Below are positions 26,822 to 62,216 of a DNA stretch of 64,000 nt, in pieces. The stretch is taken from IMG/VR virus record IMGVR_UViG_3300042154_004306; one strand, written 5' to 3'. The position numbers were made by a program, and so were the translations under genes. The notes beneath the pieces were generated by a model that searched no databases, was not told the DNA's origin, and saw nothing but the letters and a program-made list of their open reading frames with translations. This stretch comes from a virus (taxonomy: Duplodnaviria; Heunggongvirae; Uroviricota; Caudoviricetes). The first letter of the stretch is position 1, and every line of letters begins with the position of its first letter.

Positions 26822-29209
26822 ATGCAATATGTAGTTTCAGCAGAAGAGTACTTTGACTCACTAAATGAAAGCCGCCAGAATCTAGACAAGCTCATCAAGT
26901 ATTTTGAAAATATACCAGAGGCCTTCTTTGAGGCAATCGACCGAACTAACTGGTCAAAAATGGACGATTTCTTTAATCTTCCAGTGAATGAGGCCTCTTC
27001 GCAAGCAAAACTTAATCATCAACTTTTTTTACTAGATCACATTGAAGATATTAACAACATCATTCAAAAAGAGGACTTTTTAGTTAGAGCAGGTTACGAT
27101 ACCGTTGCTCTACGCGAAAGCGGCGAGTATTTAGCTACAGTTCAGTCTCTCGATGAGGGTTTACTTGGAACGGTTTGGAGTTTCATTAAAGGCATGGTCG
27201 CCGATCCGGACCCAGTTGAGATGACCTTAAATATCATTCGTCTTGTCCTAGACGTTATTGGTATTGTTCCATTCACTTGGGCAGGTTTTCCAATCGATAT
27301 TGTTGCAAACTTAATGTCTGCAGTAATTTCCATCTACAAGAACGATTTTTTCTCAGCGATTCTTAGCATTCTGTCAGCAATTGATGTAAGTAAAGTGAAT
27401 GCTGTTGCTACTAAGTTTCTTAAGCCTGCAGCGCCAATCATAAATAAAATAGCAAAAATAGCATTCAGATCAGGATCAGAAGCCGTTGCCCTTGAAAAAG
27501 TCGTAATTAACGCAAGAGAAGAATTAATAAAAATAGGCGGAAAAAGCCTATTGGACAATATTATAGGCTTATTTAAGAATATTGCAAGCTTCATAGTCGG
27601 AGCAGGATTAAGCATTGTCAAATTAATCGCAGGATTCGTTGAGTTTGCAATCAACCTTGTAACCGGTGGAGCCGCTAAAAAATACACAGCAAAGATTCCA
27701 CTATTCGTTGATAAACTTGCAGCCAACATGAGCTTATGGGGTAAAAATTTCGATAGCGCTTCTAAGATTTTAGTTGGAGCTGAGGGAGATTCTATTGCTC
27801 GAGCAAGTAAGGACCTTCAAAAAAATGCACTTGTAGCCACAAAGGGAGAAAGAAGCGCACTTATAGCTCAAACTAAAGCCGATGCAATTGCCGCCGGTAA
27901 AACTGGAAAAGCCGGTGATTTAGAGGTTGCCGCAAAGGTCAATGATTTTGATAAAGCAATAGTTGACCGATACTTGGATGCAACCGGCTATCTTGGAAAT
28001 CTTAGAGGAACTGTTAAAGAGACAAAAGTCTTCACGGACAAAATTTCAAAACTTACGAAAGCTGAACAAGATATTTGGATTGCTGCAAAAATGGAGAATG
28101 AAATAATTGGACAAGCTAAATTAAGTGCTGATGCAATACTAAAAGATAAAGATCTAGCAAAGAGACTGGCTGATTTGGGTTGGAGACCCGGTAGTGCTGA
28201 TCTAATGGCAATGGCAAAAAAAGGAGATACTGCCGGCGTTAAGAAGTTCTTTGAGGCTTTCTTAACCGATCCGCAATTATCTAAAAATTTAAGTAAGGCT
28301 GAAATCAGAGCATTCACACCATTTGTAGCCAGGCCGAAAGCATTCGTTGAAGGAGTCAAACACATGGATGATGTACTTAAAGTCGCAAAAACCATGGAAG
28401 GACTTAGCCGTACCGTGGCAAAACGAGCGATTCCATTAGAAAGAGTCTTAAGTTTCTTATCCAGACTCGTATGGCAGCAATTTGGAAATCTTGAGTGTTT
28501 AGTAGAAGTTGGAGCAAATAAGATGAGCGCAGCAATTGCGTCTCAAACGACTAAACTTGCATCAAAAGGCCTAGAGCTAGCTCTAAAACCTGCAGTAAAT
28601 GAGGCAGACGAACCTGCTCAAGATTCAGCTCAATTAGATGAGCTAGTCGCACAAGAGGTCGAAAAGAACAAAAAATTAAAAGAGCAGCTAAAGGCTAAAA
28701 AGGGTAAAGCTGATTGTGGAATGCTTGCGGCCGCGAACTCAGCGATAGTTGCTGCTCACGTTGCTGATTATCCTGGGTCAACTGCTAATTTAGGAGGAAC
28801 TTCTAACATGGGAGACGACAAAAAAGCCAGAGAGAATTTTGAAAAAACGAGCACCGAATACACTCAACAAATTCTTAAATCAATGAAGCTTGACACAAGC
28901 ATTGATGCACAACACGCAATCGATGGACTTGATCCAGTTACTCAACTTTCACTATCTGATGTTTGGGATTCTGAACATGGAGTAGTTAGCGTAAATACAT
29001 CAGAGGTTTCTAACATGAAGGAGATTGCGGATGGATTCGTTAAGCGAGGCCAATGGACTCAAGAAGAAGCTGATCGAGCTATTAAAAAGGCAACAGAGAT
29101 GCTAGATTCCGGAGATATGCCAGAAATTCCACTGCCCAAGTCAATTGAAAAAACGGATGAGGGCCTTTTTAAAACAAAAGGATTCGGATTCTCCTCTATA
29201 AATAACTAA
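26822..29209 (+). CDS. Large putative internal virion protein with pre-toxin-like helical motif
   Basis: Late promoter at 26792-26799; repeated LNE/VNE/LDE sites; LDVIGIVP...NDFFSAILSIL. Confidence 0.55.
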   Translation: MQYVVSAEEYFDSLNESRQNLDKLIKYFENIPEAFFEAIDRTNWSKMDDFFNLPVNEASSQAKLNHQLFLLDHIEDINNIIQKEDFLVRAGYDTVALRESGEYLATVQSLDEGLLGTVWSFIKGMVADPDPVEMTLNIIRLVLDVIGIVPFTWAGFPIDIVANLMSAVISIYKNDFFSAILSILSAIDVSKVNAVATKFLKPAAPIINKIAKIAFRSGSEAVALEKVVINAREELIKIGGKSLLDNIIGLFKNIASFIVGAGLSIVKLIAGFVEFAINLVTGGAAKKYTAKIPLFVDKLAANMSLWGKNFDSASKILVGAEGDSIARASKDLQKNALVATKGERSALIAQTKADAIAAGKTGKAGDLEVAAKVNDFDKAIVDRYLDATGYLGNLRGTVKETKVFTDKISKLTKAEQDIWIAAKMENEIIGQAKLSADAILKDKDLAKRLADLGWRPGSADLMAMAKKGDTAGVKKFFEAFLTDPQLSKNLSKAEIRAFTPFVARPKAFVEGVKHMDDVLKVAKTMEGLSRTVAKRAIPLERVLSFLSRLVWQQFGNLECLVEVGANKMSAAIASQTTKLASKGLELALKPAVNEADEPAQDSAQLDELVAQEVEKNKKLKEQLKAKKGKADCGMLAAANSAIVAAHVADYPGSTANLGGTSNMGDDKKARENFEKTSTEYTQQILKSMKLDTSIDAQHAIDGLDPVTQLSLSDVWDSEHGVVSVNTSEVSNMKEIADGFVKRGQWTQEEADRAIKKATEMLDSGDMPEIPLPKSIEKTDEGLFKTKGFGFSSINN

Positions 29210-29224
29210 AATTACGATAACCGA

Positions 29225-30319
29225 ATGACATTCGTTAAAACATTTGAAGATTTTAAAAATCAGGTCTCACAAGTTTCAGAAAAAGCCATTTCAGGTGGCT
29301 CTGTAACTAAGGAAGCTGAAAACAAAGCTGCTGGCGAACTTGCTAAATTCACAGTAGTTCTTAAAGCGACTAGCGATAATGATACGATAAGTGATGCAAA
29401 TCCAGCACAGAGCGCCCTAGACCATCTTGTAAACAGTCAAGACTTCCAGAACTGGTATTCCGGTGAAACTACCAGCAATGATGCGGCTGCCCAAACTTTT
29501 ACAAGTTCAAATTCAACTTCCATTGCATTCATTGACACTGGCAAGCACAGACAAGCTGGTTTCTTGAAAAGAGAAAAAGCAACTGAAACCTTTATTTTCA
29601 AGAGAATCGGTTCGCCTAACACAACTGATCGAAATAAGTCTGAACTTAATTATGACGTTAAGAAATTTCCAGCACAGGCAAAATCGAAAGTTGCTTCAGG
29701 CGGCACCGTTTATGCATGGAACCTTGAGCAGGAAAAGACAATGACTCTTAATCCAGCTCAACCAATGACAGTTCCATTGGACAGCTTAACCGTTGACCTT
29801 GCAATGAAAACTAATATTACTGCTACACCGGCTAGCCAATCAAGCCCACAAACTCCACCGGCTACACAAATTCCGGCTGGATCTGGAGGAGCGCCCACTA
29901 CTACTCAAGCCTCTACTAATACTAATCAGGCCTCTTCTTATGTTGGACTTAAGCGTACTCAAACCTTTGATAAAAGAATTCAGGATCTACAAAAGACAAT
30001 TATTGCTAAGGGTGGTCCTGCTGCTGATGCGATCGTTGCAAAAGGCGGAGCTATTGGAAAATACGGATCAGGTACAGCTTCGGCAATTGGTATTATAATT
30101 GGAACAAATAAGGCTGAAGATGAAATCACAGCAGACATTGATGCTAAATTAAAAACTGCTCTTGCTGGAGTAACCCCTGATCAAATTGCAAAGGTTCAAG
30201 CGCCTGCTGCAAAAACTGGAGTAACTTCACCGGCTGCTGCTAAGCCTGCAGCTACTTCTGCTAAACCGGCCGCTGCTGCTAAGCCTAAGGCTGTCGCTAA
30301 AGCTGACCCAGGATTCTAA
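29225..30319 (+). CDS. Tag-bearing protein with PG-binding-like domain and Ala/Lys/Pro tail
   Basis: VKTFEDFKN N-terminus; IQDLQK...GKYGSGTASAI. Confidence 0.55.
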   Translation: MTFVKTFEDFKNQVSQVSEKAISGGSVTKEAENKAAGELAKFTVVLKATSDNDTISDANPAQSALDHLVNSQDFQNWYSGETTSNDAAAQTFTSSNSTSIAFIDTGKHRQAGFLKREKATETFIFKRIGSPNTTDRNKSELNYDVKKFPAQAKSKVASGGTVYAWNLEQEKTMTLNPAQPMTVPLDSLTVDLAMKTNITATPASQSSPQTPPATQIPAGSGGAPTTTQASTNTNQASSYVGLKRTQTFDKRIQDLQKTIIAKGGPAADAIVAKGGAIGKYGSGTASAIGIIIGTNKAEDEITADIDAKLKTALAGVTPDQIAKVQAPAAKTGVTSPAAAKPAATSAKPAAAAKPKAVAKADPGF

Positions 30320-30340
30320 TAAAAATTAATAAAGTATACA

Positions 30341-31054
30341 ATGATTAACTTAAACAATTACGCAATATTAGCTGAACAGAAAAAATACGGATACTCTACC
30401 CCAATCACTGAGAGCATTGATGTAGTAAATGAAGCTGCACCGGACATGCAAACCGAAGACGGTGTCAAAAAGGTATTGGGTGGAAAAACTGACCCAAATT
30501 ATGCAGCACAATGGAATCAACTAGTCGATGATGTGGCTACTCATAAAGCTGCCGGTACGTACACTGTGACAATCAATCACGATGACAATAGGCCAATGGT
30601 AACTTTGCAATATCAGATTGGTACTGATCTTAAGCCAGTAAAAGGTAGTGTTAAACTTGCAGCTACGACTGCTCAAGCGGCTCAAGGAGCCCCAGCTCAA
30701 ATGTCTGAAGCAGACGGTTTCGCAAAGGTAAAAGCTGCATCTGACGTAATTCAAAATTTATTTGTTGATAATTCACCGTTTTTTGCACCATTTAAAGGTA
30801 CGTGGAATGATGAAGATTCAAAAGCAGCAGCAGAATTTGACAAATGGTATAATTCTAAATGGAAGGTTGTAATTGATTCGTTAAAGGGTCATACTAATGA
30901 GGATATTAAAACAAGCGCAACTAACGTTTCAAAAGCAGTAACTTCAATACTTTCAAAAATGAGAGGTGGAGCCGATGCGGATGATACGGTTGTTTGGAAT
31001 ATAGTTGCCGCAAATGGCGCTTACTCAACGTATAAAGTGGATACAGATTTTTAA
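30341..31054 (+). CDS. Putative internal virion protein
   Basis: N-terminal LAE/ITE/VNE sites; same operon. Confidence 0.55.
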   Translation: MINLNNYAILAEQKKYGYSTPITESIDVVNEAAPDMQTEDGVKKVLGGKTDPNYAAQWNQLVDDVATHKAAGTYTVTINHDDNRPMVTLQYQIGTDLKPVKGSVKLAATTAQAAQGAPAQMSEADGFAKVKAASDVIQNLFVDNSPFFAPFKGTWNDEDSKAAAEFDKWYNSKWKVVIDSLKGHTNEDIKTSATNVSKAVTSILSKMRGGADADDTVVWNIVAANGAYSTYKVDTDF

Positions 31055-31060: not shown

Positions 31061-31249
31061 ATGTTAATCGTAAATACAAAGGACAATGGATCATTAGACA
31101 GAGCCCTAAAGGTACTAAAAAGAAAATTTGAACAGACTGGAACAGTTATAGAACTTCGCTCACGTAAGGAGTTCACAAAACCTAGCGTCAAACGCAGAGA
31201 AGAGATGATTGATGCAAAGTATCGCCAAACCTTTATCAAGAATGATTAA
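31061..31249 (+). CDS. rpsU: Ribosomal protein bS21
   Basis: SLDRALKVLKRKF..TG...ELRSRKEFTKPSVKRR...AKY (Bacteroidota-type). Confidence 0.93.
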   Translation: MLIVNTKDNGSLDRALKVLKRKFEQTGTVIELRSRKEFTKPSVKRREEMIDAKYRQTFIKND

Positions 31250-31709
31250 AACATTTTCAGATTTTTTGAACGAGAAAAAAAAGAATTGGAGTGGAGCTGG
31301 CGTTGCTATTGTTTACGATGCCAAAATTCTATTGGTCCATCCAGCAAATGGCAGTTGGGTCAAACCGGTTATGGGAATTCCCAAGGGTGGAGTTGAGGAG
31401 GGCGAAGACCTTCTTGATGCAGCGCTTAGAGAACTTCGTGAGGAGACCGGCATTAAACTTTCACCCGATAAATTAGAGCAACAAGTCGAGTCAATCGACA
31501 TTTTTAATAAAGACGGCAAGTACCAACATTCTCTACACTATTTCGTTTGTAGAATATCTGATCTTTCCGAAATTGGGCTAGACTCGCTAGCCGTTCCAAA
31601 ATCCCAACTTCAAAAAGAAGAGGTTGATTGGGCAGGTTTTGTTAATATCAAGGAAGCTTATGGAAAAGTTTCAAGAGCTCAATTAATAATATTAGACCGC
31701 CTTTCCTAA
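31242..31709 (+). CDS. Nudix hydrolase with N-terminal capsid-targeting-like tag
   Basis: MIKTFSDFLNE; Nudix box GGVEEGEDLLDAALRELREETG. Confidence 0.9.
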   Translation: MIKTFSDFLNEKKKNWSGAGVAIVYDAKILLVHPANGSWVKPVMGIPKGGVEEGEDLLDAALRELREETGIKLSPDKLEQQVESIDIFNKDGKYQHSLHYFVCRISDLSEIGLDSLAVPKSQLQKEEVDWAGFVNIKEAYGKVSRAQLIILDRLS

Positions 31710-37625: not shown

Positions 37626-38066
37626 TTAGCGTTGAGTTCTTGACGGACGTAACGTAATTTTCTTTCCAGGTCTTGAATATTCGACTCTGCGAACTGCCTT
37701 ATCTACCATTTCATTGTCTGGAATCTCATTATCCTTTGCGAACATTTCTTTTTTATTCATTTCCGAAACTTCATAAGATTTCCGTAATGAGTCAGCCTCG
37801 TCCGCGAAGTCCTGCGCAAGGTCCTCGCTAGCAGTATCGTTTATCTCAACCGTTAGGTCGTCCAATAGGTCCCTAACTCTAGTTGAGGTCTCGTATTTTT
37901 CAGAGTATGGATCGATCTCGGTTGGATTTTGCATGTATTGATTAGCAAGTTTAATTAACTCCTTTGCCATGGTGTGATAGAAACGATCTGATGTTAGGTC
38001 AGGTTTTTGATGAAAGTCATCAAACGCTTCTTCAAAGCTTTCAAATAGGGCAATGTAATTTTTCAT
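37626..38066 (-). CDS. Tag-bearing late protein
   Basis: MKNYIALFESF; late promoter at 38093-38100. Confidence 0.6.
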   Translation of the reverse strand: MKNYIALFESFEEAFDDFHQKPDLTSDRFYHTMAKELIKLANQYMQNPTEIDPYSEKYETSTRVRDLLDDLTVEINDTASEDLAQDFADEADSLRKSYEVSEMNKKEMFAKDNEIPDNEMVDKAVRRVEYSRPGKKITLRPSRTQR

Positions 38067-38103
38067 TGATATTTGGTATAATTTTAGTAAAGTTATTTAT
38101 CTT

Positions 38104-39003: not shown

Positions 39004-39004
39004 T

Positions 39005-47477: not shown

Positions 47478-47837
47478 ATGATAGAAATAAGATTTAGAGA
47501 TATCGATCCAGATACTGGAGGAATTTCTCAAGACATGAAAATCGCAACTTGCGAAATCCTAATTTACGCTGAATGGATCAAGCAAGCTCTTGAAACTGGA
47601 GACGCTGATCAACCTAATCGCGAGTATTATCTGGTCGATCGTGAAGATCCTAACCGTGAGCTCACGTATGAGGAAAGAATTGCATGGTTCGTTGCGAATC
47701 ACTATGAAACTGGCATGGAGTACTCAAATCTATTAGAGTCGATGAAGACTACTAATCTTGATAATTTTGAATACATTAACGGTGAAATTGTTAAGATTCC
47801 AAAAACGGTTGGTGAACTTGGCCTAGCACAAGATTAA
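47478..47837 (+). CDS. Hypothetical protein with RELTYEER module
   Basis: Motif related to the thyA insert RELSLEER. Confidence 0.55.
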   Translation: MIEIRFRDIDPDTGGISQDMKIATCEILIYAEWIKQALETGDADQPNREYYLVDREDPNRELTYEERIAWFVANHYETGMEYSNLLESMKTTNLDNFEYINGEIVKIPKTVGELGLAQD

Positions 47838-49075
47838 GCGACTTGTACGTCTAATAACGTGGCAATCTTTTTGCCGCCCTGCGAAATTAAACTATTTCCG
47901 CTATTTGCTCTACTGTTAATTGCAAGTTTAGCAAGTTCCTCAGGGTCAGTTACTCCTCTGCGAACTGCATCGTTTACGGTTTCTGCAAATTTATCGAACC
48001 AACCTGGCCCGTTCCATACTGAATATACAAAATTGAAAAGAAGTTTAGGATTCTCATTAACGATCGCTAGCGCTGGTCCTGATAAGTATTTCGTAGCATA
48101 AGTGTCATAGTAACGCTTAATCATTTTACCAGCGAGCTCTCGTAGTTGAGTCTCAAGTTGGCCTCCGCGATATCCCCATTTCCACTCTGATCTTGCATTA
48201 GCTGAATCAATTAGATTCCAAAACTTGATGCCCTCAGGTGTTGTGTTAATTGCACCGCCTGCTTTACGATCAATTCCCATCATCGTTTCTCCCGAATTGC
48301 CGTATCTATCATCTTTTACTCGACCGTCATTCAGCATGTCAGGATGATAGTAACCGCCTTCGAGATTATCAATAACCTTTGCAACTATTCCGTCAAAGTC
48401 GTTAACGTCAAGTTCAATAGCTTTACCTGAGTCGGTCTTTTTAAGTTCTGCGAATTTGGCTAAATTTTTTTCTGAAAAATTCTTTTCCTTTAACGTGTTA
48501 ATAAGTCGAGTTATTAGGTCAGCGTCAATAATAACGCTAGTAGCAGATTCAGTTGAATCAGCGGCAGCTGCGCCAGTCAATCCAGTAACCGTGATTGGAT
48601 CATCAGTCTTTGCGTTAGCTGTTTTTGAATTTTCTGCATGATTACCATAAGACAAATGGAAGTGTCCGCCGGTCGCCGATTTACTAGGATTAGAGTATTC
48701 ATCAATGTAGCTAAAACCTGGAGTACCGTCGGATACTCTATCTAAGACTGCCGTTAATTGCTGACGAGTCTCAGCAGTATTAGGGTTAACGGTCAAATCA
48801 ATTGCTTGCCCTTTAGTATGGCGGCTAACATACGATAAGTTATGATGAAACACATCATTTCCACTAGTTACCTTAATCTTTACGGTTGGCGCAATTTTCT
48901 TAAATTCATCAAGCACCACTTCCACAATTTTTGCTATGTCAGCTGTAATATCTCCACCGCTACTAAGCTCTTTGGATTTTTCAGAATAGCCAAGAGTCGT
49001 TAATTTATCCCGAAGTTCGTCAGCCTGTGCAGCTTCCAATATTAACTTTTTAAAATCAGTATACGAGCCAATCAT
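47834..49075 (-). CDS. Tag-bearing cell-wall hydrolase: M15-like peptidase plus lysozyme-like (GH108-type) domain
   Basis: SRHTKGQAIDL...GHFHLSY (Zn peptidase); LEGGYY...GETMMGI. Confidence 0.7.
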   Translation of the reverse strand: MIGSYTDFKKLILEAAQADELRDKLTTLGYSEKSKELSSGGDITADIAKIVEVVLDEFKKIAPTVKIKVTSGNDVFHHNLSYVSRHTKGQAIDLTVNPNTAETRQQLTAVLDRVSDGTPGFSYIDEYSNPSKSATGGHFHLSYGNHAENSKTANAKTDDPITVTGLTGAAAADSTESATSVIIDADLITRLINTLKEKNFSEKNLAKFAELKKTDSGKAIELDVNDFDGIVAKVIDNLEGGYYHPDMLNDGRVKDDRYGNSGETMMGIDRKAGGAINTTPEGIKFWNLIDSANARSEWKWGYRGGQLETQLRELAGKMIKRYYDTYATKYLSGPALAIVNENPKLLFNFVYSVWNGPGWFDKFAETVNDAVRRGVTDPEELAKLAINSRANSGNSLISQGGKKIATLLDVQVA

Positions 49076-49452
49076 TAGATTCCCTGGTCTTTTTTAGTGT
49101 CCTCATTGAACTTCTTGATCGCAGCTGCGGTTTCTGGTCCAAAATAACCATCCACGCCCCAGTTAGGCAGAGAGTAGCCTAAAAAGGTTAAAGCAGCCTG
49201 AATGTTCTCTACCATTTTAGAATACTGGAATTCTCCCTGTTTTTGAACAACGATCGATTTGCCAGCTTTTGCAAAATCTTCTAATGTTTTGTAAAAGTCA
49301 GATAGAGTATCGTCAGTTATTCCTTGCTTAGCAGAAGTTTCCTTCTTTTTTGCCTCGCCCTCTTCACTCTTACCAGTCAACCAGTCTTTGAACGTGCCTT
49401 CATTCATTGACCTGAAGTCTCTGAACGGCTTAATCATTTTTAAACTTTCCAT
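49075..49452 (-). CDS. Tag-bearing peptidoglycan-binding protein
   Basis: IKPFRDFRSMNEG; IQAALTFLGY...VDGYFGPETAAAIKKF; late promoter at 49478-49485. Confidence 0.8.
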   Translation of the reverse strand: MESLKMIKPFRDFRSMNEGTFKDWLTGKSEEGEAKKKETSAKQGITDDTLSDFYKTLEDFAKAGKSIVVQKQGEFQYSKMVENIQAALTFLGYSLPNWGVDGYFGPETAAAIKKFNEDTKKDQGI

Positions 49453-49488: not shown

Positions 49489-50244
49489 ATGTCAGAATCA
49501 ATAAAGAGAGTCGTAATGAATGGTTTCCGATACTACCAAGTATCAGATTCAACTGGAATAGTCGGAACATTTCCAAGTGTAACCTCAGTCCTGGGTGAAA
49601 CTTCTGATAAGAGTGGGCTTGATGCTTGGCGAAACAGAGTTGGCCATCAAAAGGCTGATCAAATAGGTAAGGACGCGGCCAACCGTGGAACTGTCATGCA
49701 CAGATTGTGTGAAATTTATCTTAACTTACCTCAGTCAATGTCGGTCAAGGACAGGCTTGAGGATACCCTGTCATTGGCAAGGCTAGACGACGAGATTGAT
49801 CAATTTGACAATCGAGCAAAAATAGTCGGCGGCATGCTCTTCTATAACTTCATAAAGTCAAATTCATTCGATGAAATTAAACGAGTGATTGCTCAGGAGA
49901 AATTCCTATGGACCGCTAGAGATGGTGGATTTGCTGGTGCTGTGGATAATGTGTCAGAATTAATAACGAACGATGTTGCAATAGTTGATTTCAAGACCGC
50001 TCGTAAACCAAAGGACGAGAAATGGATTGAAGATTACAAGCACCAAGTGGCAGCATATTCGGTAGCCGTTTGGGATAGAATGCAGGTAAAGGCAGTTACG
50101 TGTAGAATCTGGATCTCAAATGAGGTCACCATCGCTCCTCAGCACTTCAGAATGGACTCAAGCGAGATGCGTGAGTACTACTTTAAATTTAGAGAAAGGC
50201 TCTCCAAGTTTTACGAAATGCATCCTCCTATTATAGTTCAATAG
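49489..50244 (+). CDS. PD-(D/E)XK exonuclease
   Basis: PSVTSVL, RGTVMH, AGAVD, IVDFKT, QVAAY. Confidence 0.88.
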   Translation: MSESIKRVVMNGFRYYQVSDSTGIVGTFPSVTSVLGETSDKSGLDAWRNRVGHQKADQIGKDAANRGTVMHRLCEIYLNLPQSMSVKDRLEDTLSLARLDDEIDQFDNRAKIVGGMLFYNFIKSNSFDEIKRVIAQEKFLWTARDGGFAGAVDNVSELITNDVAIVDFKTARKPKDEKWIEDYKHQVAAYSVAVWDRMQVKAVTCRIWISNEVTIAPQHFRMDSSEMREYYFKFRERLSKFYEMHPPIIVQ

Positions 50245-52210
50245 GGTCTCCAACCAACTTTCTCAATAGGTCAAGACGAACTGCAGTAGGTCTCTCTCCT
50301 CCACCGAAAGTATTCATGTAGATGAATGGTTGATTTGCAGTATTTCTGGTTGTGTAATCGCATTTGGCTAGGATTCCCCAGTTATTCATGTGATTCGCGA
50401 TGTAGTAATGATCTCCGCCTCGTGCACTAAGTTTATCATCTTCAGTAACCGGCTCAACTCGATAAGCAGTTAGGCCAAGCCCAGTGAATGGAGGTTGAAT
50501 TGATTTACCTGTTACCAAGTTGATTATCACAGAATTTCGTGGATTTGAAATTAATTCTTCAGGCGTCTCAATTGGTCTAACCGATCTACCTTGAGGGCCT
50601 ATTCTTTTAAATGCTGCGAATACTGGAATACCGGTGTATCCTCTAAGTTGATCTCTTTGAGATGGTGCTAATAATATGAACTTAACAAAATCGCCAGTTC
50701 TCGCTTTCTTTAATAGATCGATTGATTGTAATGAAGGTCTATTAATTGTCAACTGCTTTAAATCACGACCGTTTGTCGGTAACCCGCCGAAAGTGTCTTT
50801 TGATCCAGCCCTCTCAGTATTCTCTTGACGTTCTCTTTCAACTCGCTGTCTTTCAGCTTCTCTTTCAGCTTCTCTACGTCTTTCAAGGTCTTCTGGGTCC
50901 AATAGAGACTGGACGTATCTTTTTTCGAGCGAAGTTAAGTTAATTGCATCGAGGTCAGGGATACTTTCTAAATTAATTTTAATCCATGAGGTTTTATCAG
51001 AAGTAGTGCGAAAATCATTCGATTGACCTGGAGAGATTTCACCAGCATCAATTCTAATCGCATCTGCTATTTTAACCGCAACGTAACTACGACCGTCTTG
51101 TGCAACTACTCTACGAATCGGTAGATCTTGGTAACTTGAGTTGTACAAGTATTGTTTAACGACGATGAAGTCTCCGATATTCCACTCAGCGTCAGGATCT
51201 GCACCGAACTGGGTAAGTCTAGTAGCAAGGAGCTGACGTGTCTCAGCCTCTTGTCGTGCTTGAAGTTCACGGCGTTCAGTTTCTTCACGTTCAGCTCTTT
51301 CTCTTTCAAGGCGTTGAGATTCGGTTCGAGCAGCGATGATCTGTTCTTTTCTTTCAGGAGTTAATCTGGTCTGATTTAAAAGCTCATCTATATAACTTGG
51401 GTGAAGTTTAGTTAGGAACGTATCTGGCATTATTGCAAGAAGTTCATCGTCCATGTCAAAACGATCGCTCTTTGTGTTGTTTAATCCGATTGTGCTAGTT
51501 ATAAATATTTGAGCAACATCAACTTTTTCTCTGTCAGGTAAAGTTGTTTTATCGATGGCCATCCAGTTAGAAGGCCCGATTATTGCATGACAATCGTCCT
51601 CAGAAGGAGATCCATCAGGATTTGCTTTGTAATCTAGCATTGATCCCCAAGCTTTATCCTTTTCTCTTGTGCCTGACGTATTTGAGGATATGTAACCCGC
51701 GTATTTTAATAGAGTTCGATAAAGTTTATAACCAAGACCGGTTCCCCTAAGACCAGCTGGAATTCCGCCATTTGGAAAATGACTTCGTTGTGAATCAGAA
51801 GGACCTTCTGTTCTAAAATGAATTGCATTGCTATTATTTGGATAGATGTCTTTCCAATAGCCAAAATTACTAGTGAATCGATTTTCATCGATCCCCTTTA
51901 ATTCATTCATCAAGTCAACTATTTCTTGTGGAAACTTAGGATAATAACTTCTAGTGTTTGAAGGTTTTTCCATCGTTATTTGAGTCCTAGGAATATTCTT
52001 TAAAGCTTGTTCCAACTCTGCTGCAACTTGCGTGAATGATCTAGCAGGTGGGCGATTTGCCATTTGCTCTCTTCGTCTAATGGTTTCTTGACGAATTGTT
52101 CCCATTTGACTACCTGAAAGTCTTTCGGGTCTTTTAACTCCCATTTCGTCAACTAGGCCATCTTTGTTTAGATTGGATTCGTTGACCATGTCAATAAATG
52201 AATTTATCAT
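50231..52210 (-). CDS. Large tag-bearing protein with GNAT-like motif A
   Basis: MINSFIDMVNES; IPAGLRGTGLGYKLY; late promoter at 52232-52239. Confidence 0.55.
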   Translation of the reverse strand: MINSFIDMVNESNLNKDGLVDEMGVKRPERLSGSQMGTIRQETIRRREQMANRPPARSFTQVAAELEQALKNIPRTQITMEKPSNTRSYYPKFPQEIVDLMNELKGIDENRFTSNFGYWKDIYPNNSNAIHFRTEGPSDSQRSHFPNGGIPAGLRGTGLGYKLYRTLLKYAGYISSNTSGTREKDKAWGSMLDYKANPDGSPSEDDCHAIIGPSNWMAIDKTTLPDREKVDVAQIFITSTIGLNNTKSDRFDMDDELLAIMPDTFLTKLHPSYIDELLNQTRLTPERKEQIIAARTESQRLERERAEREETERRELQARQEAETRQLLATRLTQFGADPDAEWNIGDFIVVKQYLYNSSYQDLPIRRVVAQDGRSYVAVKIADAIRIDAGEISPGQSNDFRTTSDKTSWIKINLESIPDLDAINLTSLEKRYVQSLLDPEDLERRREAEREAERQRVERERQENTERAGSKDTFGGLPTNGRDLKQLTINRPSLQSIDLLKKARTGDFVKFILLAPSQRDQLRGYTGIPVFAAFKRIGPQGRSVRPIETPEELISNPRNSVIINLVTGKSIQPPFTGLGLTAYRVEPVTEDDKLSARGGDHYYIANHMNNWGILAKCDYTTRNTANQPFIYMNTFGGGERPTAVRLDLLRKLVGDPIEL

Positions 52211-55073: not shown

Positions 55074-55889
55074 TTATTTGACGTACTCTTCGAGTGATAT
55101 CTTAAGGCCGTCTATATTCTCAAGTTCTGACGATGATTCGTCATAGTAATTTTGATATCGTTCTTCTAAAAGAACTGAGGCCTTTCCGAAGCCCAATTGA
55201 TCTAATATTCGGATTGCAAGCCAGTCAGCTTCTCTTTCTTGCCGTTCATCGTATTTCGAAAGACGATTAGATTCATGATGATTGAGTAATGAATGCGAAA
55301 TTTCATGAGCCTCAATTGCAAGAATGTGATCTTGCGTTAGGTTTTGAGACTCAACCTGAACTCCATCTATGAATACTGTTTTTGAATTTAGGTCAGCGAA
55401 TGCTGTTCCCAACCAGTCAAATATCTTTGCAACATGTCCGTAAAGTTCATCCTCTGGCCAGAGAACCAAGATCTTCCAACTTGGATCAATCTCACTTCTC
55501 CAAACGGCACTAGGCTCTCCAGAAGTTTCATCTGAACTCTCAGTCAAATTGTACTTCTTCATTTTTGAAGCACGGCGACCGGTTAGGTCTCTCCAAAGTT
55601 CCCTAACGTCAGGTTGTGCCAGCGTATCCGCTTGTACCATTGAATAGAACTGGTTGTCTGAATTTTGCAACATTGCAAAAAATTCTTCAAGTGTCGGTTT
55701 CTTTGGCAAGGCTTCAATTCTAGGTTTAAGTCTTCTGAACATTGGAAATAGTTCAGTTTCGTACTTGTCTCCAGTGTGCGGATTCCTACCAAATTTACGA
55801 TTAATTCCCAAATCACCAACTTTCTTTAACGGTCTAGGCTGAGCCACGTTTTCAAGTAGCCAATCATTAAATTTAAGTAATGTCTTCAT
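55074..55889 (-). CDS. Tag-bearing HExxH metallopeptidase (ImmA/IrrE-like)
   Basis: MKTLLKFNDWLLE; AHEISH...EREAD; late promoter at 55895-55902. Confidence 0.7.
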   Translation of the reverse strand: MKTLLKFNDWLLENVAQPRPLKKVGDLGINRKFGRNPHTGDKYETELFPMFRRLKPRIEALPKKPTLEEFFAMLQNSDNQFYSMVQADTLAQPDVRELWRDLTGRRASKMKKYNLTESSDETSGEPSAVWRSEIDPSWKILVLWPEDELYGHVAKIFDWLGTAFADLNSKTVFIDGVQVESQNLTQDHILAIEAHEISHSLLNHHESNRLSKYDERQEREADWLAIRILDQLGFGKASVLLEERYQNYYDESSSELENIDGLKISLEEYVK

Positions 55890-55938: not shown

Positions 55939-56352
55939 ATGATCCATACGTATCAACAATGGCTTGATGAATCTGAAAAGGTTGAAGCAGGAGCCGAAAC
56001 TCCAGCTACGGCAATGCCAGAAATGCCAACTGAAGAAACTCCAGCAATGGACGCAACTGGTGAAATGCCTATCGATTCAGCTGAGTCTGAAATAGAACAG
56101 TATCGTACGCTAGACACGGCTCGTAGAGAAGCAATTAAAGCTTTCAAAGCAAAACAAGAAGAATTCTTGGAAATCCCAGATGAAACTCGTAAGAATCCAA
56201 CTGAGGAAGCTGATAAAACTAAGATTGAAACTCTAAAAACCGAATTGATCGAGCTTAACCAGAAAATGAAGGATGAGATTAGAGCATGGGACTCTTTTAA
56301 TTCAATGGCATTGGGACTCAGTGATGACGCTGATTTAGACGATGAGCCTTAA
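55939..56352 (+). CDS. Tag-bearing acidic coiled-coil protein
   Basis: MIHTYQQWLDE; late promoter at 55914-55921. Confidence 0.65.
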   Translation: MIHTYQQWLDESEKVEAGAETPATAMPEMPTEETPAMDATGEMPIDSAESEIEQYRTLDTARREAIKAFKAKQEEFLEIPDETRKNPTEEADKTKIETLKTELIELNQKMKDEIRAWDSFNSMALGLSDDADLDDEP

Positions 56353-56358: not shown

Positions 56359-57147
56359 ATGCAGTACTTACTAGAATATAACGACTGGGTCTCACAACGT
56401 GAACGAGAACTCAATGAAGATTGGGACCTTGGCGATTGGGCGCATTTAACAGCAGACGTGGTTAGCGCTGTTGCTGACTCAGTTGTTCCAGGCTCAGGGG
56501 CAATAATCGACCTTATTCATTCAATAAGTTATTGGATTCAGGCTGAGTTAACTCAGATCCCTATTGAAAAACTGTCCCTTGATTTACAAGGAATTGTTAC
56601 GTTAGGGTCGGTCGTTGCAATCTCAGCGTTTCAGGCAGCATCTGTCTCGTTTAAACTAGAGATTAAAGCCGTGCTTGATGCCTTTAAAAAGGGTGCTAAC
56701 CCATCCACAATTAACCTTGCCAAAAAGGCCGCCGCTGGTGCAATGAGCCATGGGCAAAAGATCTTAACCCTAATTACTGATGTTGCAAAGTGGGTAGGAA
56801 GCCAGCTTGCAAAACTCAAGGATTCTACGTTAGGCGTTTGGATAATTGAGCACTTCGGCTCTTTCAAAACCGGCGTTGATAAAGTTCTTAACTTTCTAAC
56901 AGTTAATGTGCCAGACTCAATCAGGAAGTTCTTGGCCCTATTGGCTAAATTAAATCCAACATCGATTGGTGCAAATGCTGCAGGTGGAGAGGTTGGCGAA
57001 CTTGCCGTAAAACAGGTTGCCAAGACTTACGCTGCAAATAAGGGCACAAATGCGGCAGTTAATGCGATTGCACAAACAACTCAGAATACGAATCAGAAAA
57101 TTGTTCAATTACAGCAGAAAAAAGCAACGCCTCCTAAGAATATCTAA
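56359..57147 (+). CDS. Tag-bearing protein with pre-toxin-like helical motif
   Basis: MQYLLEYNDW...LNE; HLTADVVSAVADSVVPGSGAIID. Confidence 0.55.
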   Translation: MQYLLEYNDWVSQRERELNEDWDLGDWAHLTADVVSAVADSVVPGSGAIIDLIHSISYWIQAELTQIPIEKLSLDLQGIVTLGSVVAISAFQAASVSFKLEIKAVLDAFKKGANPSTINLAKKAAAGAMSHGQKILTLITDVAKWVGSQLAKLKDSTLGVWIIEHFGSFKTGVDKVLNFLTVNVPDSIRKFLALLAKLNPTSIGANAAGGEVGELAVKQVAKTYAANKGTNAAVNAIAQTTQNTNQKIVQLQQKKATPPKNI

Positions 57148-58084: not shown

Positions 58085-58657
58085 ATGAAAAAGTTAATCA
58101 TCATACTCTTTTTATCATTTGGAGAAATCGCCACGGCTCAGGATCTAAATGATCTCTATTTTTTAAAGTTGGTGAATGCTCACAGGGCAAAAAATGGATT
58201 GGCTCTTGTAAAATACGACCTGACTCTTGACTCAGCGTGTAAGTTACAGGCAGATTATCAATTAAGGGTTGATCGATGCACTCACACCCAAGACCCAACG
58301 AACGGTACTGATACCCTGTTTTGGTATATTGCAGGCAATCGACTTGACCGAGTTGATGCGAATTGGACCAGAAGATTTCACAGATATCCAATTGGTGAGA
58401 ACTGTGCAAAATGGAAGTATGCTGGCCCAGTGTTTCAACCTGAAATGAGAGTGGACACGACCATGGTCAAAAGGATATTCGAGATGTGGATACATTCACC
58501 GGGCCATAATGCGGTCCTCCTTATGCCAGGCGCAACGGTTGCAGCAATTGAACTTAGCTTTTTAAGAACTCAAAATTACAATACGATTCTTGATTTGGCC
58601 TCTTATGATTTTAGACTGTTTGCAACCTGCTTGCTAATGATTGAACTTAAAAAATAG
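58085..58657 (+). CDS. CAP/SCP-domain secreted protein
   Basis: LVNAHRAKNGL, GENC, WIHSPGHNAVLL; signal peptide; TAGTATAAT at 58055-58063. Confidence 0.85.
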   Translation: MKKLIIILFLSFGEIATAQDLNDLYFLKLVNAHRAKNGLALVKYDLTLDSACKLQADYQLRVDRCTHTQDPTNGTDTLFWYIAGNRLDRVDANWTRRFHRYPIGENCAKWKYAGPVFQPEMRVDTTMVKRIFEMWIHSPGHNAVLLMPGATVAAIELSFLRTQNYNTILDLASYDFRLFATCLLMIELKK

Positions 58658-58674
58658 TCTGGTCTCCAGGCATA

Positions 58675-58704
58675 AAAAAACCGGACTCATTGGGTCCGGT
58701 TTTT
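58675..58704. terminator. Bidirectional terminator
   Basis: AAAAACCGGACTCA-T-TGGGTCCGGTTTTT. Confidence 0.75.
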
Positions 58705-58722
58705 GGGTATTATCAAAATAGA

Positions 58723-60336
58723 TTAGAATTTTGGACACTTAAGAGGTCCGCCTGGAGCTGGCATGGTAGGCATGCTCGGTAGGCTAAATCTAATTCGAGG
58801 AATTTTGATTGAGATTGATTCGTCCGCCCAGCTTATGTGACCTTTCCATTCTCCGCTAGGAGTTGCAGTTGCCAAAACCTCGGTTTCAGGTTTTTGAGGA
58901 ACCTCATAGGTGAAGCTTAGGAAACACATTGAGTATCGCCAAGGTGAATAGATTGCCTCGTATTCTGGAGTTCTTGCACCTGGCTTGCCGAACTTTGGAT
59001 CAGCCATTTCCTTGGCGGTCCAAACCGGTCCACGTTCTGGGTCCTCTCTGTTTTTGGCAGTATTGACAGTTGGGACGACGGTTATTCCGCTGGCAGCGAT
59101 TGCATCAGCAAGGGCTTTATTAATGGAGGCTAAACGATCCTGAGCGAGTCCAGCATTGCCGGTTTTTCCATTCGCTGACCTGTACTTTGAGGGGACTCTA
59201 CTTGTGCTTGAATAACCCCAAGTGCTAATGGCGGTTATTGTACCGCCAGCAGATTTCACCGCGTCTACTGCCTGCTCGACAGCCGCATTAATCTCGGCAA
59301 TCGCTTCAGGCTTAACGGCCACGCCGTTATCCGGAAACATGCTTAAGCCCTTTTTGAAATTAGGGCTAGTTTCATCGCCCTTTGGATCTTCCGGATAGGA
59401 AAATACCAATGGTGGAGGAGCTGCTTGCGGAACGGTTGTGTCCACCTTAACCGTGATCTTTTCGTTCTGTGGTGCAATATAGAGATCGGTTGCGGCCATG
59501 ATTGCCTTCGGCATGTCGAGCTGAACTCCAGCCTTTTGTTTTCGGGCAACATAGGCCTCAGCCTTTTGTTGAAATAGATCAAGTAGAGCCTTTTTGTTCT
59601 CATCATTAATCTGAGTGCTTGCGGCCCAGTAATTATTGACCTGGTCCGGATTGGTACGCATCTGTTCCAACCAGTCAATTGAGCTCTTTGGATCCTTGCC
59701 CAATTCAGAGGTTGAGTAGTAGGCAACTCTCCAGGCCTTAAGCACCCTAACCAATTGGTCGTTTGGCTTGGGCTTGTCAAGGTCAGCCGCGATATCTGAG
59801 ATTTTAAGAGTATCGAACTTATTATCGACTAGGGCTCCTGGAATAAGGGCTCCCAGGACCTGAACGGTCTTTGGCACAAAACCCTTAGGCTGTAACTCCT
59901 TTAGCTTCCGAACGGCGGTGGCTAACCCCGTAAGTTTGGTCTGGTCAAGGCCAAGCCGTTGGCCGTTACGAACGATTGAGTCAGAGACCTTATAGAAATC
60001 GGTAAGGTTGGCCGTGGCTTGGCCTGAGGAGCCCGTACCCGACCAGTAATAGATTGATTTTAGGGAACGGGTAGTATCTGTCTTGCGAGCCGAGCCCTGC
60101 TTTAGGATTGACCGGATTAGGCCCAGATTACCGGACCCGTTCTTCCACCATTCCATGACTGCGGCATAGGCTGGGTGAGCCTTTATCTGAGCGGAGTCAG
60201 CGGTTTGAGCCAGGGCAACAAGACCCTTACGGTCTCCGGCCTGATACATTGAGGTTGAGTCGGAGCCCTCAGCCTCGTGCAGGCCAAGCGACTCGGTCAA
60301 CCAGTCAGAATAGGACTTTATAATTGAATTTTTCAT
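58723..60336 (-). CDS. Tag-bearing protein with OmpA-like C-terminal domain
   Basis: IKSYSDWLTES; GYSS...NAGLAQDRLASI; late promoter at 60368-60375. Confidence 0.55.
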   Translation of the reverse strand: MKNSIIKSYSDWLTESLGLHEAEGSDSTSMYQAGDRKGLVALAQTADSAQIKAHPAYAAVMEWWKNGSGNLGLIRSILKQGSARKTDTTRSLKSIYYWSGTGSSGQATANLTDFYKVSDSIVRNGQRLGLDQTKLTGLATAVRKLKELQPKGFVPKTVQVLGALIPGALVDNKFDTLKISDIAADLDKPKPNDQLVRVLKAWRVAYYSTSELGKDPKSSIDWLEQMRTNPDQVNNYWAASTQINDENKKALLDLFQQKAEAYVARKQKAGVQLDMPKAIMAATDLYIAPQNEKITVKVDTTVPQAAPPPLVFSYPEDPKGDETSPNFKKGLSMFPDNGVAVKPEAIAEINAAVEQAVDAVKSAGGTITAISTWGYSSTSRVPSKYRSANGKTGNAGLAQDRLASINKALADAIAASGITVVPTVNTAKNREDPERGPVWTAKEMADPKFGKPGARTPEYEAIYSPWRYSMCFLSFTYEVPQKPETEVLATATPSGEWKGHISWADESISIKIPRIRFSLPSMPTMPAPGGPLKCPKF

Positions 60337-60471
60337 GTTTTGAAAACTAGTTAATTTTTATCAAGGTTTATTTATTCTTTGGGCTCCCAAAAAATGTTTT
60401 TTACTCTAATTCGGCTAAAGGTTCAGAGCGAGCGGTACAATAGCCTTATCTTAAACAAAATTCATTATAAC

Positions 60472-60756
60472 ATGAGCAAAACAAGCAAAAACACCGCTAC
60501 AACAGTTGAGGCAACTGTTGCGGTAACCAAGACAGCAAGCCGTAAGGGTATGAGCTACGCAAAATTAAGCCAAGATCAAAAGCGAGAAATCATCGCCGGC
60601 CGTAAAAATCGTGGTGATGGTGCAGTGATCGCAGCTAAAATGGGAGTAACAACAGCCTATGTGTCTAGTGTCATTACGGGTCGTAAGGCGAACCCGAAAG
60701 TGGTTAACCAAATGTACGACATGGTTAGAGGTCGTAAAGCAAAAGCAACAGCTTAA
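60472..60756 (+). CDS. Small basic HTH DNA-binding protein
   Basis: IAAKMGVTTAYVSSVITGRK.N. Confidence 0.7.
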   Translation: MSKTSKNTATTVEATVAVTKTASRKGMSYAKLSQDQKREIIAGRKNRGDGAVIAAKMGVTTAYVSSVITGRKANPKVVNQMYDMVRGRKAKATA

Positions 60757-60780
60757 GCAGAACAACCGGCCTAGACCAAC

Positions 60781-60807
60781 AAGGAGCCCCGTAAGGCTCC
60801 TTTTTTT
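60781..60807 (+). terminator. Intrinsic terminator
   Basis: AAGGAGCC-CCGTAA-GGCTCCTTTTTTT. Confidence 0.8.
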
Positions 60808-60843
60808 GGGTGGTTAGGCCAGGAGTCCATTTCAGCCGGTCTA

Positions 60844-61266
60844 TCATTGACCTAAATTTAGTAGTTTGTGTAGTTTTTCTGGAAGCAGGTCGCCGGTTGT
60901 AGCATCATACCAGTCGCCGGTGTCAAGGTCCCACAAGAGGTCAGCGTCAAACACCCTGGCCATCTTGAGCATAATCGCCAGCTTTTGACCAACCTCAGTT
61001 GCTGAGTATTCCCCAACCAAGGGCAACTTCCAAAACTGCTTAGGCGACTTGGCACTGGGCCAGTCACTATAGTAATTACACATCAGGACGGGCTCTCCAT
61101 TATCCAGCCGCGAGGATTCCAGCTCTCCATTATCCAGCCGCAAGGATTCCATACAGGTCAAGACCTTCCAAGTTAACTCATCACCTAGCCCAAGGCTTAC
61201 CAGGCGAATCTTATCAGCTAGGTCAAGGCTCTCCAAAACGAACCCCTTAAATGTCTGTGTTTTCAT
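60844..61266 (-). CDS. Tag-bearing paralog A
   Basis: TFKGFVLESLD..DKIRL..LGL; ARVFDADLLW; late promoter at 61271-61278. Confidence 0.7.
   Translation of the reverse strand: MKTQTFKGFVLESLDLADKIRLVSLGLGDELTWKVLTCMESLRLDNGELESSRLDNGEPVLMCNYYSDWPSAKSPKQFWKLPLVGEYSATEVGQKLAIMLKMARVFDADLLWDLDTGDWYDATTGDLLPEKLHKLLNLGQ
61092..61151. repeat. 30-nt in-frame tandem duplication
   Basis: GCTCTCCATTATCCAGCCGC(G/A)AGGATTCCA, two copies. Confidence 0.9.
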
Positions 61267-61329
61267 AGAGTTATTTATCGCGAGCCCGGCCCCACCAAGG
61301 GGGTCCTGCCGGCGGTGCAGGCACGCCAG

Positions 61330-61770
61330 TTATTCAAGGCCAAGAGCCCGGTGGAGCTTGCCAATGTGCTCGCCGGTCCGGGCGTCGAGCCAAGTATTAT
61401 CGGGAATTTTCCATACCAGGTCAGCGTCAAACTTGCGAGCGAGCCTCATGATCTCCGAGTCCACAATCCGGGGATCTACCGGGCCTTTCCGTCTTGACCT
61501 GATCATCTTGTCACTATACCATTCAACCCAATCACGATCCCTCTCAGTCGTACCCGGCCAGTTCTCGTAGATCCAACAGTGCATATAGTTGTGTAAATGC
61601 ACGTAGTTTAGCAGCCGGTCCCAGCCGGGTTGACTAAGCCGGTCCCAGTCAACCTGGACCTTTAGGACACGGGCCCCATGGTCAAGACCAAGCTGAGCAA
61701 GCCTAAGCCGGTCTTCCCAGTCCAGACTCTCGGTCAAGAACTCTGCAAATGATTTAATTGAATGGTCCAT
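61330..61770 (-). CDS. Tag-bearing paralog B
   Basis: IKSFAEFLTESLD.EDRLRL..LGL; ARKFDADLVW; TATAAATA at 61779-61786. Confidence 0.7.
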   Translation of the reverse strand: MDHSIKSFAEFLTESLDWEDRLRLAQLGLDHGARVLKVQVDWDRLSQPGWDRLLNYVHLHNYMHCWIYENWPGTTERDRDWVEWYSDKMIRSRRKGPVDPRIVDSEIMRLARKFDADLVWKIPDNTWLDARTGEHIGKLHRALGLE

Positions 61771-61781
61771 ATAGTTAATAT

Positions 61782-62216
61782 TTATAGGGCGTCAGTTGCA
61801 AGCCATTGGAGACGATATTCATCATTAAGGGCCTGGTCAAGAAGAACAAGGATATGCTCCTGAGATACCCCTAATTCCCTAAGTCTTAGGGCAAATGGTG
61901 CAAATACCTGGTCAACCAGATCCGGATCCGTCCCATTTGCCTGGGCAACAACGGCCTTTGCCCTACGGATAAGCTTTGACCTATCAGTAATAAGCTTGGC
62001 CATAGAGACGGCCTTGCTCACCGGATTAGGACTAGCGACAAGCACCTTGGCTCTATCCCGGTCCTTGGGATCCGGAAAATTATGGAGTATGTAAAACAGC
62101 TCCCTACCCGATAAGTGCCAAGGAGGTGGTGGATTTCCCAATCCAATACGGTGTAGTTGAATATGGTCCGAATAGACGCTCTCAAATAGTGAATATGATA
62201 TGATATAGCTCTGCAT
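61782..62216 (-). CDS. Tag-bearing protein C
   Basis: True start probably MQSYIISYSLFES (62216); late promoter at 62221-62228. Confidence 0.6.
   Translation of the reverse strand: MQSYIISYSLFESVYSDHIQLHRIGLGNPPPPWHLSGRELFYILHNFPDPKDRDRAKVLVASPNPVSKAVSMAKLITDRSKLIRRAKAVVAQANGTDPDLVDQVFAPFALRLRELGVSQEHILVLLDQALNDEYRLQWLATDAL

Follow-up and report, generated by a model that had tools for sequence, protein, structure and literature searches.

A 64-kb stretch of DNA from an uncultured lake phage (64,000 nucleotides, IMG/VR record IMGVR_UViG_3300042154_004306; the whole of this stretch is referred to as the window) carries a series of late genes whose protein products begin with variants of one short peptide, here called the tag, and are otherwise unrelated. 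We consider it likely that this shared N-terminus is a leader of 10-20 residues of the type known from phage T4, that is, a capsid-targeting and protease-cleaved leader, which has here been greatly expanded in use. The tag matches the T4 tag at four functional positions, and the phage therefore probably pre-packs an unusually large and varied set of enzymes in its head.

The genome of the phage is about 270 kb in size, and one of the window's proteins, of 537 residues, was found on a contig of 270,359 bp. Relatives used for comparison were the IMG/VR genomes G001 (270,962 bp, with terminal repeats and rated 100% complete), G003 (216,815 bp) and, for the head genes, G002. The large terminase is 87% identical between the window and G001 and 68% between the window and G003, and the window aligns collinearly with the 185-245 kb region of G001, at a nucleotide identity of 70-75%.

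A shared leader on unrelated proteins

The tag was defined in its strict form as [FYW]-x-x-[FWYM]-[LIVM]-x-E, beginning no later than residue 13, and in its relaxed form by an intact aromatic pair with the aliphatic-x-Glu a few residues further on, or by the lack of one aromatic. All 14 N-termini picked out by an earlier sequence-only reading of the window are present where that reading had placed them, while its figure of about 15 tagged genes is slightly generous, about 10-12 being solid: seven tags are strict (31242, 50231-52210, 55074-55889, 55939, 58723-60336, 60844-61266 and 61330-61770), five relaxed (26822, 29225, 47834-49075, 49075-49452 and 56359) and two weak (37626-38066 and 61782-62216). 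The strict count in the window was six with our gene calls and seven with the corrected start of the Nudix gene, against an expectation of 0.44 from the rate at internal positions and of 0.22 when residues 2-20 were shuffled within each protein, with a maximum of three in 2000 shuffles. By the same two measures G001 has 19 strict tags against 1.85 and 0.84 expected, and G003 has 14-15 against 1.76 and 0.58. The excess at the N-terminus is thus 14- to 27-fold in the window and 8- to 26-fold in the two relatives. Scoring with a position-weight matrix gave a similar picture: among proteins of at least 100 residues, a score of at least 4 was reached by 10 N-termini in the window versus 0-1 in internal control windows of equal size, by 29 versus 4-10 in G001 and by 22 versus 2-6 in G003. 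The excess of tagged proteins by this measure is about 9-10, 23 and 18, respectively; tagged proteins make up 8-10% of those of at least 100 residues, and there are roughly 20-25 tagged genes in each of the two related genomes. In the 39 strict tags there is also conservation which the pattern does not impose, with K at -2 in 22 of 39, N at +5 in 17 of 39, and preferences for S/T/K at +1, Q/D/E at +2, N/T at +5 and S/N/A/G after the Glu.

Beyond this leader of 10-20 residues and one consensus, the window has twelve unrelated bodies. When the tagged proteins were compared by BLASTP (E < 1e-3) without their first 20-25 residues, the matches were confined to five orthologue pairs between the window and G001 and one pair of paralogues in the window (60844 and 61330), and none of the 23 tagged proteins of G001 matched another. 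Among 16 homologues of the 537-residue cargo protein (50-82% identity), conservation is highest in the tag: its residues Y9, W12, L13 and E15 never vary, and 10 of the 15 N-terminal columns are invariant against about 23% overall. The Nudix cargo protein, queried against 1.84 billion representatives, had 1421 relatives, in most of which the match starts at residue 4-6, opposite query residue 17-19, so that the leader is absent. The leader is present in at least 11 of the top 150 Nudix cluster representatives, which means that the same domain occurs with and without the tag.

Sequence divergence is also faster in tagged cargo, with a median identity to G001 of 57% versus 71% for untagged proteins and to G003 of 35% versus 53%; no significant difference between tagged and untagged genes was seen in their presence or absence in the relatives. 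The syntenic cell-wall hydrolases of the window (47834-49075) and of G001 (L098:11508-12794) are both tagged and have in common only a central linker of 32 residues (59% identity), the catalytic domains that flank it having been swapped (LAS/M15_3-like plus lysozyme fold in the window versus VanY plus another domain in G001). Distant homologues of this hydrolase (P0198-P0257, on contigs of up to 319 kb) have another N-terminal leader, which starts M-K-R-I-L-Q-E-D/N-L, so that the leader on a single cargo family varies from one phage clade to another. Yet another leader, M-N-K-x-I-K/R-x-L-I/L-E-S/N-L-F-D-D, is shared by three of 32 open reading frames (ORFs) around the capsid gene of the megaphage Lak-C1, in which TAG encodes Gln (contig L115, 7606-8814, and 39411-40457 and 40541-41590 on the minus strand); this leader, which has an aliphatic-x-Glu within it, may correspond to the tag in that clade. 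In the 42 kb around the capsid gene of LR756500, scaffold repeats of the kind described below were degenerate and no clear tags were found.

Linkage to late transcription

The T4 late promoter is TATAAATA, which the motif ATAAATA (extended consensus R-ATAAATA-A) resembles. ATAAATA is concentrated 12-45 nt upstream of start codons and is rarer than expected in G001 overall (96 copies versus about 163 from base composition). The G001 genes that it precedes include those of the protease-capsid operon, the baseplate wedge gene and a number of large ones which are probably tail or fibre genes. Since it heads structural operons, it behaves as a late, structural promoter.

Tagged genes have this motif more often than untagged ones (Fisher p = 1.4e-4 in the window and p = 1.4e-4 in G001). 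When membership of late units, that is, of short same-strand units headed by the promoter, was counted, tagged and untagged genes differed strongly, with 7/7 versus 29/78 in the window (p = 0.0017), 19/23 versus 116/303 in G001 (p = 4e-5) and 14/17 versus 72/237 in G003 (p = 3e-5). The statement of the sequence-only reading that nearly all the tags sit in ATAAATA-headed units also holds: of the 15 copies of ATAAATA in the 26-64 kb part of the window 11 lie directly upstream of a tagged gene, and each of the remaining three tagged genes comes after a promoter-headed gene of its unit. As judged by the promoter motif, tagged genes would thus be expressed late, with the head genes.

Protease, scaffold and capsid genes of the relatives

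Each of G001, G002 and G003 encodes one Peptidase_S77 (the family of T4 gp21) and one Gp23-family capsid protein above Pfam cut-offs (the latter PF07068, E 1.5e-41 to 3e-49), and the S77 protease is found in thousands of metagenomic relatives as well; among the metagenomic candidates scored, the protease-scaffold family has 4583 cluster representatives at E <= 0.001. The protease is the N-terminal portion of a larger protein (about 670 residues), the middle of which consists of tandem 14-residue units with the consensus I-[KQN]-Y-[ST]-[END]-Y-[LVI]-[AG]-E-[KN]. There are 11 such units in G001, about 11-12 in G003, and 5-11 with a spacing of 14 in each of 120 cluster representatives (57-100% identity). 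Every unit ends in aliphatic-small-Glu, which is the T4 gp21 type of cleavage site, and scaffold repeat and tag each have one consensus common to G001 and G003. The capsid gene follows directly. Its product in G001 has I-N-E at about residues 14-16 and 51-53, ahead of the Pfam match that starts near residue 105, and the next gene in both G001 and G003 encodes a small Lys/Gly/Ser-rich protein with a strict tag.

The likeness between scaffold unit and tag is a partial one. A BLOSUM profile built from the 11 units of G001 only was matched at a score of at least 12 by 17 N-termini of G001 versus 5.6 expected, and at a score of at least 16 by three N-termini of the window versus 0.3 expected. When the positions left free by the pattern were scored, the repeat profile suited the N-terminal tags better than it did chance matches inside proteins (Mann-Whitney p = 5e-5). 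A complex prediction of the G001 repeat region with the tagged Nudix protein of G001 gave a score of 0.00, which is no verdict and is evidence for neither side. Degenerate repeats are also seen in a cultured, distant phage, Tenacibaculum phage pT24, whose protease-scaffold fusion has only two of them. In T4 gp22 no comparable tandem repeat was found, either by eye or with the tag pattern.

Within the protease-scaffold ORF (G001 99883-101904; G003 156284-158272) there is a further late motif just before the repeats, at nt 697 in G001 and nt 616 in G003, followed about 40 nt later by an in-frame ATG, so that the scaffold may also be made alone. This arrangement recalls the C and Nu3 genes of lambda, in which protease and scaffold likewise share one reading frame; the differences are that the protease here is of the T4 S77 type, the scaffold is a 14-residue tandem array and its separate expression is putative.

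Comparison with known systems

The T4 capsid-targeting sequence (CTS) was reportedly studied by Mullaney and Black in 1996, in work known to us through reviews. It is carried by the internal proteins IPI, IPII and IPIII and by Alt (PMC9026906, PMC3012670, PMC5694885). According to the T4 reviews, all internal head proteins join the core by way of the CTS, for which the first 10 residues of IPIII suffice. The published T4 tag satisfies our strict motif, and its aromatics at positions 4 and 7, its aliphatic at 8 and its Glu at 10 are the four fixed positions of the tag described here. The two systems further resemble each other in having a short N-terminal leader on unrelated proteins, late expression, and an S77 protease together with a Gp23-family capsid protein in the lineage. 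They differ in scale, with a handful of tagged genes in T4 versus about 20-25 per genome here, and in cargo, which is small and basic in T4 whereas here it consists mostly of enzymes and large proteins. They differ also in setting, the present lineage having a genome of about 270 kb, probably Bacteroidota as hosts, and a protease fused to a scaffold of tag-like tandem units. It should be noted that T4 gp23 (NC_000866) itself has the strict pattern at residues 59-65, ending at Glu65, which is the known end of its 65-residue propeptide; the pattern may thus be a general docking and cleavage element of gp21 and not an internal-protein tag only.

The internal-protein loci of T-even phages are polymorphic and encode diverse proteins with only the CTS in common (PMC3012670, PMC9026906). 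The faster turnover of cargo in the present lineage, and the hydrolase domains exchanged at one site around a retained tag and 32-residue linker, are in keeping with this; tagged genes here are, in contrast, scattered genome-wide in many late units instead of being gathered in one locus, and an anti-restriction role was assigned to none of them. In phiKZ, 201phi2-1 and SPN3US a gp21-related protease cuts many proteins of the head interior after Glu (PMC5694885, PMC7411985, PMC10052503), and some ejection proteins of SPN3US have a transmembrane (TM) segment after the propeptide, as do the products of 26822 and 56359 here. Their propeptides are mostly longer than 100 residues and have no single short tag, and their cleavage motif is small-x-Glu. 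Propeptides of this type were considered for the present leaders and rejected, the latter being of 10-20 residues and of one consensus. Encapsulins offer a more remote likeness, in that unrelated enzymes are brought into an HK97-fold shell by a short peptide at one terminus; their cargo-loading peptides are C-terminal, bind the shell directly and remain uncleaved, with neither scaffold nor protease.

Alternative explanations

The leader might be a protease-recognition propeptide only, which for example keeps enzymes inactive until it is cut, and have no role in sorting. Its aliphatic-x-Glu end is the gp21 type of cleavage motif, the capsid protein of G001 has I-N-E sites of its own, and hydrolases are often made as zymogens. 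However, the two aromatic positions are conserved as strongly as the cleavage residues, and mutagenesis of the T4 CTS has shown that residues 4 and 7, the aromatics, serve mainly targeting, that residues 8 and 10 serve processing, and that an Asp at position 10 stops cleavage and not targeting (PMC9026906). In addition the S77 prohead protease acts inside proheads, where its substrates must first arrive. We regard a purely proteolytic role as improbable.

We give as little credence to the idea that the tag docks its carriers onto some other structure built late, for instance the tail or baseplate, a site at the membrane or a compartment within the cell, or that it is the site of a different modifying enzyme. 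That many of the cargo proteins are cell-wall enzymes, which in myoviruses are usually on the baseplate, would fit the former; the four functional positions of the T4 head tag are nevertheless all matched by the tag, which is also similar to the repeats of a head scaffold, and the small tagged proteins are located in the head-gene module. A linked modifying enzyme was not seen among the genes annotated, no systematic search for one having been made.

A further possibility is that what is conserved is a nucleic-acid signal at the start of late mRNAs, for instance a translation enhancer or a recombination site, and that the peptide is a by-product. The tags do follow a conserved late promoter and an A-rich leader, and the internal-protein genes of T-even phages are presumed to be shuffled by recombination at shared sequences. 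The residues, though, are fixed while third positions and codon families vary freely: TTT and TTC, TAT and TAC, four Leu codons, both Ser codon families, and GAA and GAG are all used, and the information content at codon position 3 is 0.1-0.6 bit at most codons. This synonymous variation indicates selection on the protein, not on DNA or RNA, and makes such a signal very unlikely. Least credible of all is that the motif reflects chance, a composition bias at N-termini or one paralogous family, for although AT-rich genomes favour K, N, I and F near starts and the window genes 60844, 61330 and probably 61782 are paralogues, shuffling of residues 2-20 gives 0.2-0.8 hits versus the 6-19 observed, and the bodies are unrelated by BLASTP.

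Proposed mechanism and its weak points

According to the capsid-targeting explanation, the tagged proteins would be made late, together with the head proteins. The leader would probably form an amphipathic helix with the two aromatics and the following aliphatic residue on one face; in both predicted cargo structures it is the start of a low-confidence N-terminal helix. This face would dock the cargo onto the prohead scaffolding core, that is, onto the prohead protease fused to its scaffold of 9-11 tandem 14-residue tag-like units. The S77 (gp21-family) protease would then cut after the Glu of aliphatic-x-Glu in scaffold units and leaders alike, the scaffold peptides would exit, and the mature cargo would remain in the head with the DNA, presumably to be ejected into the next host.

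As to the claim of the sequence-only reading that this is a modular packaging-tag system which loads a cocktail of proteins for injection, the core idea of a modular T4-type capsid-targeting tag is favoured by the enrichment of the tag, the unrelated bodies, the selection at the protein level, the late promoter, the S77 and Gp23 genes of the relatives, the tag-like scaffold and the Nudix domain with and without the leader, while docking onto the scaffold, packaging and retention in the head, cleavage and injection are steps that we infer. This last point counts against the explanation, as do several others. Five of the window's tags are relaxed and two weak. The protease, scaffold and capsid genes were seen in the relatives only, the window's own head genes lying outside the window. 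The cargo is mostly acidic to neutral, unlike the basic internal proteins of T4. The absolute fit of the tags to the repeat profile is poor, and the tag is not a copy of the unit: at -2 the scaffold has I and the tags have K (with I/L at -3), and the scaffold's Y/Y pair corresponds to F/Y and F/W in the tags. Finally, several cargo proteins are directed at peptidoglycan (LAS peptidase plus lysozyme fold, PG-binding, OmpA-like, T4-lysozyme family), and the wall-acting activities of myoviruses are usually found in the baseplate or as endolysins, not in the head. Cargo of this kind may act in the periplasm during entry, or may represent a second use of the tag.

The tagged genes of the window and their cargo

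The cargo proteins range from 62 to 795 residues and are mostly acidic to neutral. Most had no match in Pfam or PHROGs even at E up to 10, and PDB sequence searches with three of them returned nothing useful. Where fold matches are quoted, their Z values lie in a range that can mean a common fold only; the LAS, lysozyme and OmpA assignments were accepted because the match lists were consistent and sequence signatures were present.

On the plus strand, the first tagged gene (26822..29209, ATAAATA at 26792) encodes a late protein of 795 residues with a relaxed tag (core YFDSLNE), two TM-like segments (residues 134-152 and 247-265) and a G001 orthologue of 46% identity; it had no Pfam or PHROG match. 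It is followed by 29225..30319 (plus strand, ATAAATA at 29198), for a late protein of 364 residues in which the aromatic pair is followed by V-S-E at residue 19 (relaxed tag); the protein is basic (isoelectric point 9.3) with an Ala/Pro/Lys-rich tail, and no family match was found. The Nudix hydrolase (31242..31709, plus strand, strict tag with core FSDFLNE) most likely starts at the ATG at 31242, because its G001 orthologue starts likewise. Between the last two lies a gene for a late protein of 237 residues (30341-31054), which may begin with a weak tag, Y-A-I-L-A-E, and has I-T-E and V-N-E sites after it; it may be a fifteenth substrate. A weak variant of the tag is found on a 146-residue acidic protein (37626..38066, minus strand, late motif at 38094), and this N-terminus is kept in the G001 orthologue.

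A two-gene late unit on the minus strand (late motif at 49479) begins with a relaxed-tag gene for a small PG_binding_1 protein (49075..49452), the start of which is most likely the second ATG, at 49437, since the G001 orthologue starts likewise; in many homologues this protein is fused to the downstream hydrolase. The latter (47834..49075, minus strand, relaxed tag) appears from its motifs and predicted fold to be a two-domain cell-wall hydrolase with an LAS/M15-type peptidase and a lysozyme-fold domain. In it H86-x6-D93 and H138-x-H140 are invariant, and the model (predicted local distance difference test score 83) matches the hedgehog/LAS fold at residues 7-146 (Z 9.3-9.6) and the lysozyme/chitosanase fold at residues 221-411 (Z 8.2-8.7). 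Its homologues exchange VanY, Amidase_2 and PG_binding_1 domains.

Further along, 50231..52210 (minus strand, late motif at 52233) encodes a 659-residue protein with a strict tag (core FIDMVNE), for which neither a Pfam match nor a PDB sequence match was found. A 271-residue protein with a strict tag (core FNDWLLE; 55074..55889, minus strand, late motif at 55896) contains HEISH at residue 195. On the plus strand there is then a late unit (ATAAATA at 55914) with the gene for a 137-residue acidic protein (55939..56352, strict tag with core YQQWLDE) and, 6 nt past it, one for a 262-residue protein (56359..57147, plus strand) in which the aromatic pair is followed by L-N-E at residue 20 (relaxed tag); this protein has one TM-like segment and no homologue in G001 or G003. 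The 537-residue protein (58723..60336, minus strand, late motif at 60369, strict tag with core YSDWLTE) has a C-terminal OmpA-like domain; residues 309-475 of its model match OmpA/MotB/Pal (Z up to 8.2, 124 of 127 residues aligned), the class to which almost all of the best matches belong. Three small minus-strand genes close the series. Those for proteins of 140 residues (60844..61266, strict tag, late motif at 61272) and 146 residues (61330..61770, strict tag with core FAEFLTE, late motif at 61779) are paralogues (29% identity, E 5e-8) and form a small family, of which the 144-residue protein with a weak tag variant (61782..62216, late motif at 62222) is probably a third member, given an L-x-R-(L/I)-G-L stretch after the tag which all share (by eye only).

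The functional labels of the sequence-only reading fared unevenly. Nudix (PF00293, E 7.6e-15) and PG-binding (PF01471, E 1.4e-7) pass Pfam, and the M15 peptidase/lysozyme label is borne out by the predicted fold and the conserved H-x6-D and H-x-H. The fold likewise upholds the OmpA-like label, for which an Atlas language-model lead (0.80) was weak. For the HExxH peptidase the motif is there, while the family matches are weak only (phrog_87 metalloprotease, E 6.7e-5; M78 and M48 weak). The GNAT-like label, for 50231..52210, was not confirmed beyond a weak Atlas lead (0.76-0.77), and nothing matched a pre-toxin-like protein. Tagged proteins further found in G001 include a T4-lysozyme family member (PF00959), a VanY peptidase, a weak HAD hydrolase, and a 183-residue protein (L087:14961-15512) with 2H phosphoesterase and Acb1 (anti-CBASS) matches below the cut-off (25 versus 27 bits), which could, from these matches, be a pre-packaged counter-defence enzyme.

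The source phage and other features of the window

The window also has genes for a T4-type large terminase (PF03237), a gp6-like baseplate wedge protein, PhoH and a sigma-factor-like protein, and a phage-encoded tmRNA (7102-7471, minus strand; Rfam RF00023, 96 bits) with a tag peptide of 24 residues. The closest named relatives of the capsid protein, at 27-38% identity, belong to huge uncultured phages, Lak megaphages and jumbo phages of Tenacibaculum, Flavobacterium, Chryseobacterium and Sphingomonas, and the hosts of the lineage are probably Bacteroidota. In a megablast search of the window against known phages, a thymidylate synthase fragment alone matched. The thymidylate synthase gene (45205-47216) is split by an insert of about 860 nt which contains a GIY-YIG-type ORF (45560-46258, motifs seen by eye), and is unbroken in G001; no match to a group I intron in Rfam attained the gathering threshold. 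There is a sharp shift in G+C content, from 0.28-0.35 (38001-48000) to 0.46-0.52 (58001-64000); the G+C-rich stretch holds four of the tagged genes (58723-62216), and past 62 kb there are few convincing ORFs.

Significance

The principle of a capsid-targeting leader is already known from T4 and T-even phages. What appears to be new is the scale, the enzyme-rich cargo, the distant lineage, and the fusion of the protease to a scaffold with tag-like repeats; a search of one literature library for such expansions of a tag found no paper on them, only work on T4, phiKZ-like phages and P1. How the prohead core recognises the CTS has never been explained, and reviews say only that the tagged proteins of T4 "have affinity" for the core. 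A scaffold which is a tandem array of tag-like units suggests a concrete hypothesis, namely that the tag mimics one scaffold repeat unit, so that cargo would co-assemble with the scaffold and be freed by the same cut. It is possible, if somewhat doubtful, that this is the general mechanism of T4-type capsid targeting, and that it forms an open address system by which 20 or more proteins are delivered with the DNA in this widespread freshwater lineage. Practical interest would attach to a tag of ten residues with which arbitrary proteins can be loaded into a large capsid, as it already does to the T4 tag. Metagenomes are very rich in the protease-scaffold family.

Enzymes make up most of the cargo that could be identified, and this suggests that a large ready-made toolkit enters the cell with giant freshwater phages whose hosts are probably Bacteroidota; such a toolkit would have a bearing on entry, early take-over and counter-defence. 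If the hypothesis is true, the delivered set would include cell-wall hydrolases, membrane-inserting proteins and nucleotide hydrolases (Nudix, HAD-like and Acb1-like), and the last of these could disarm the signalling defences of the host on arrival.

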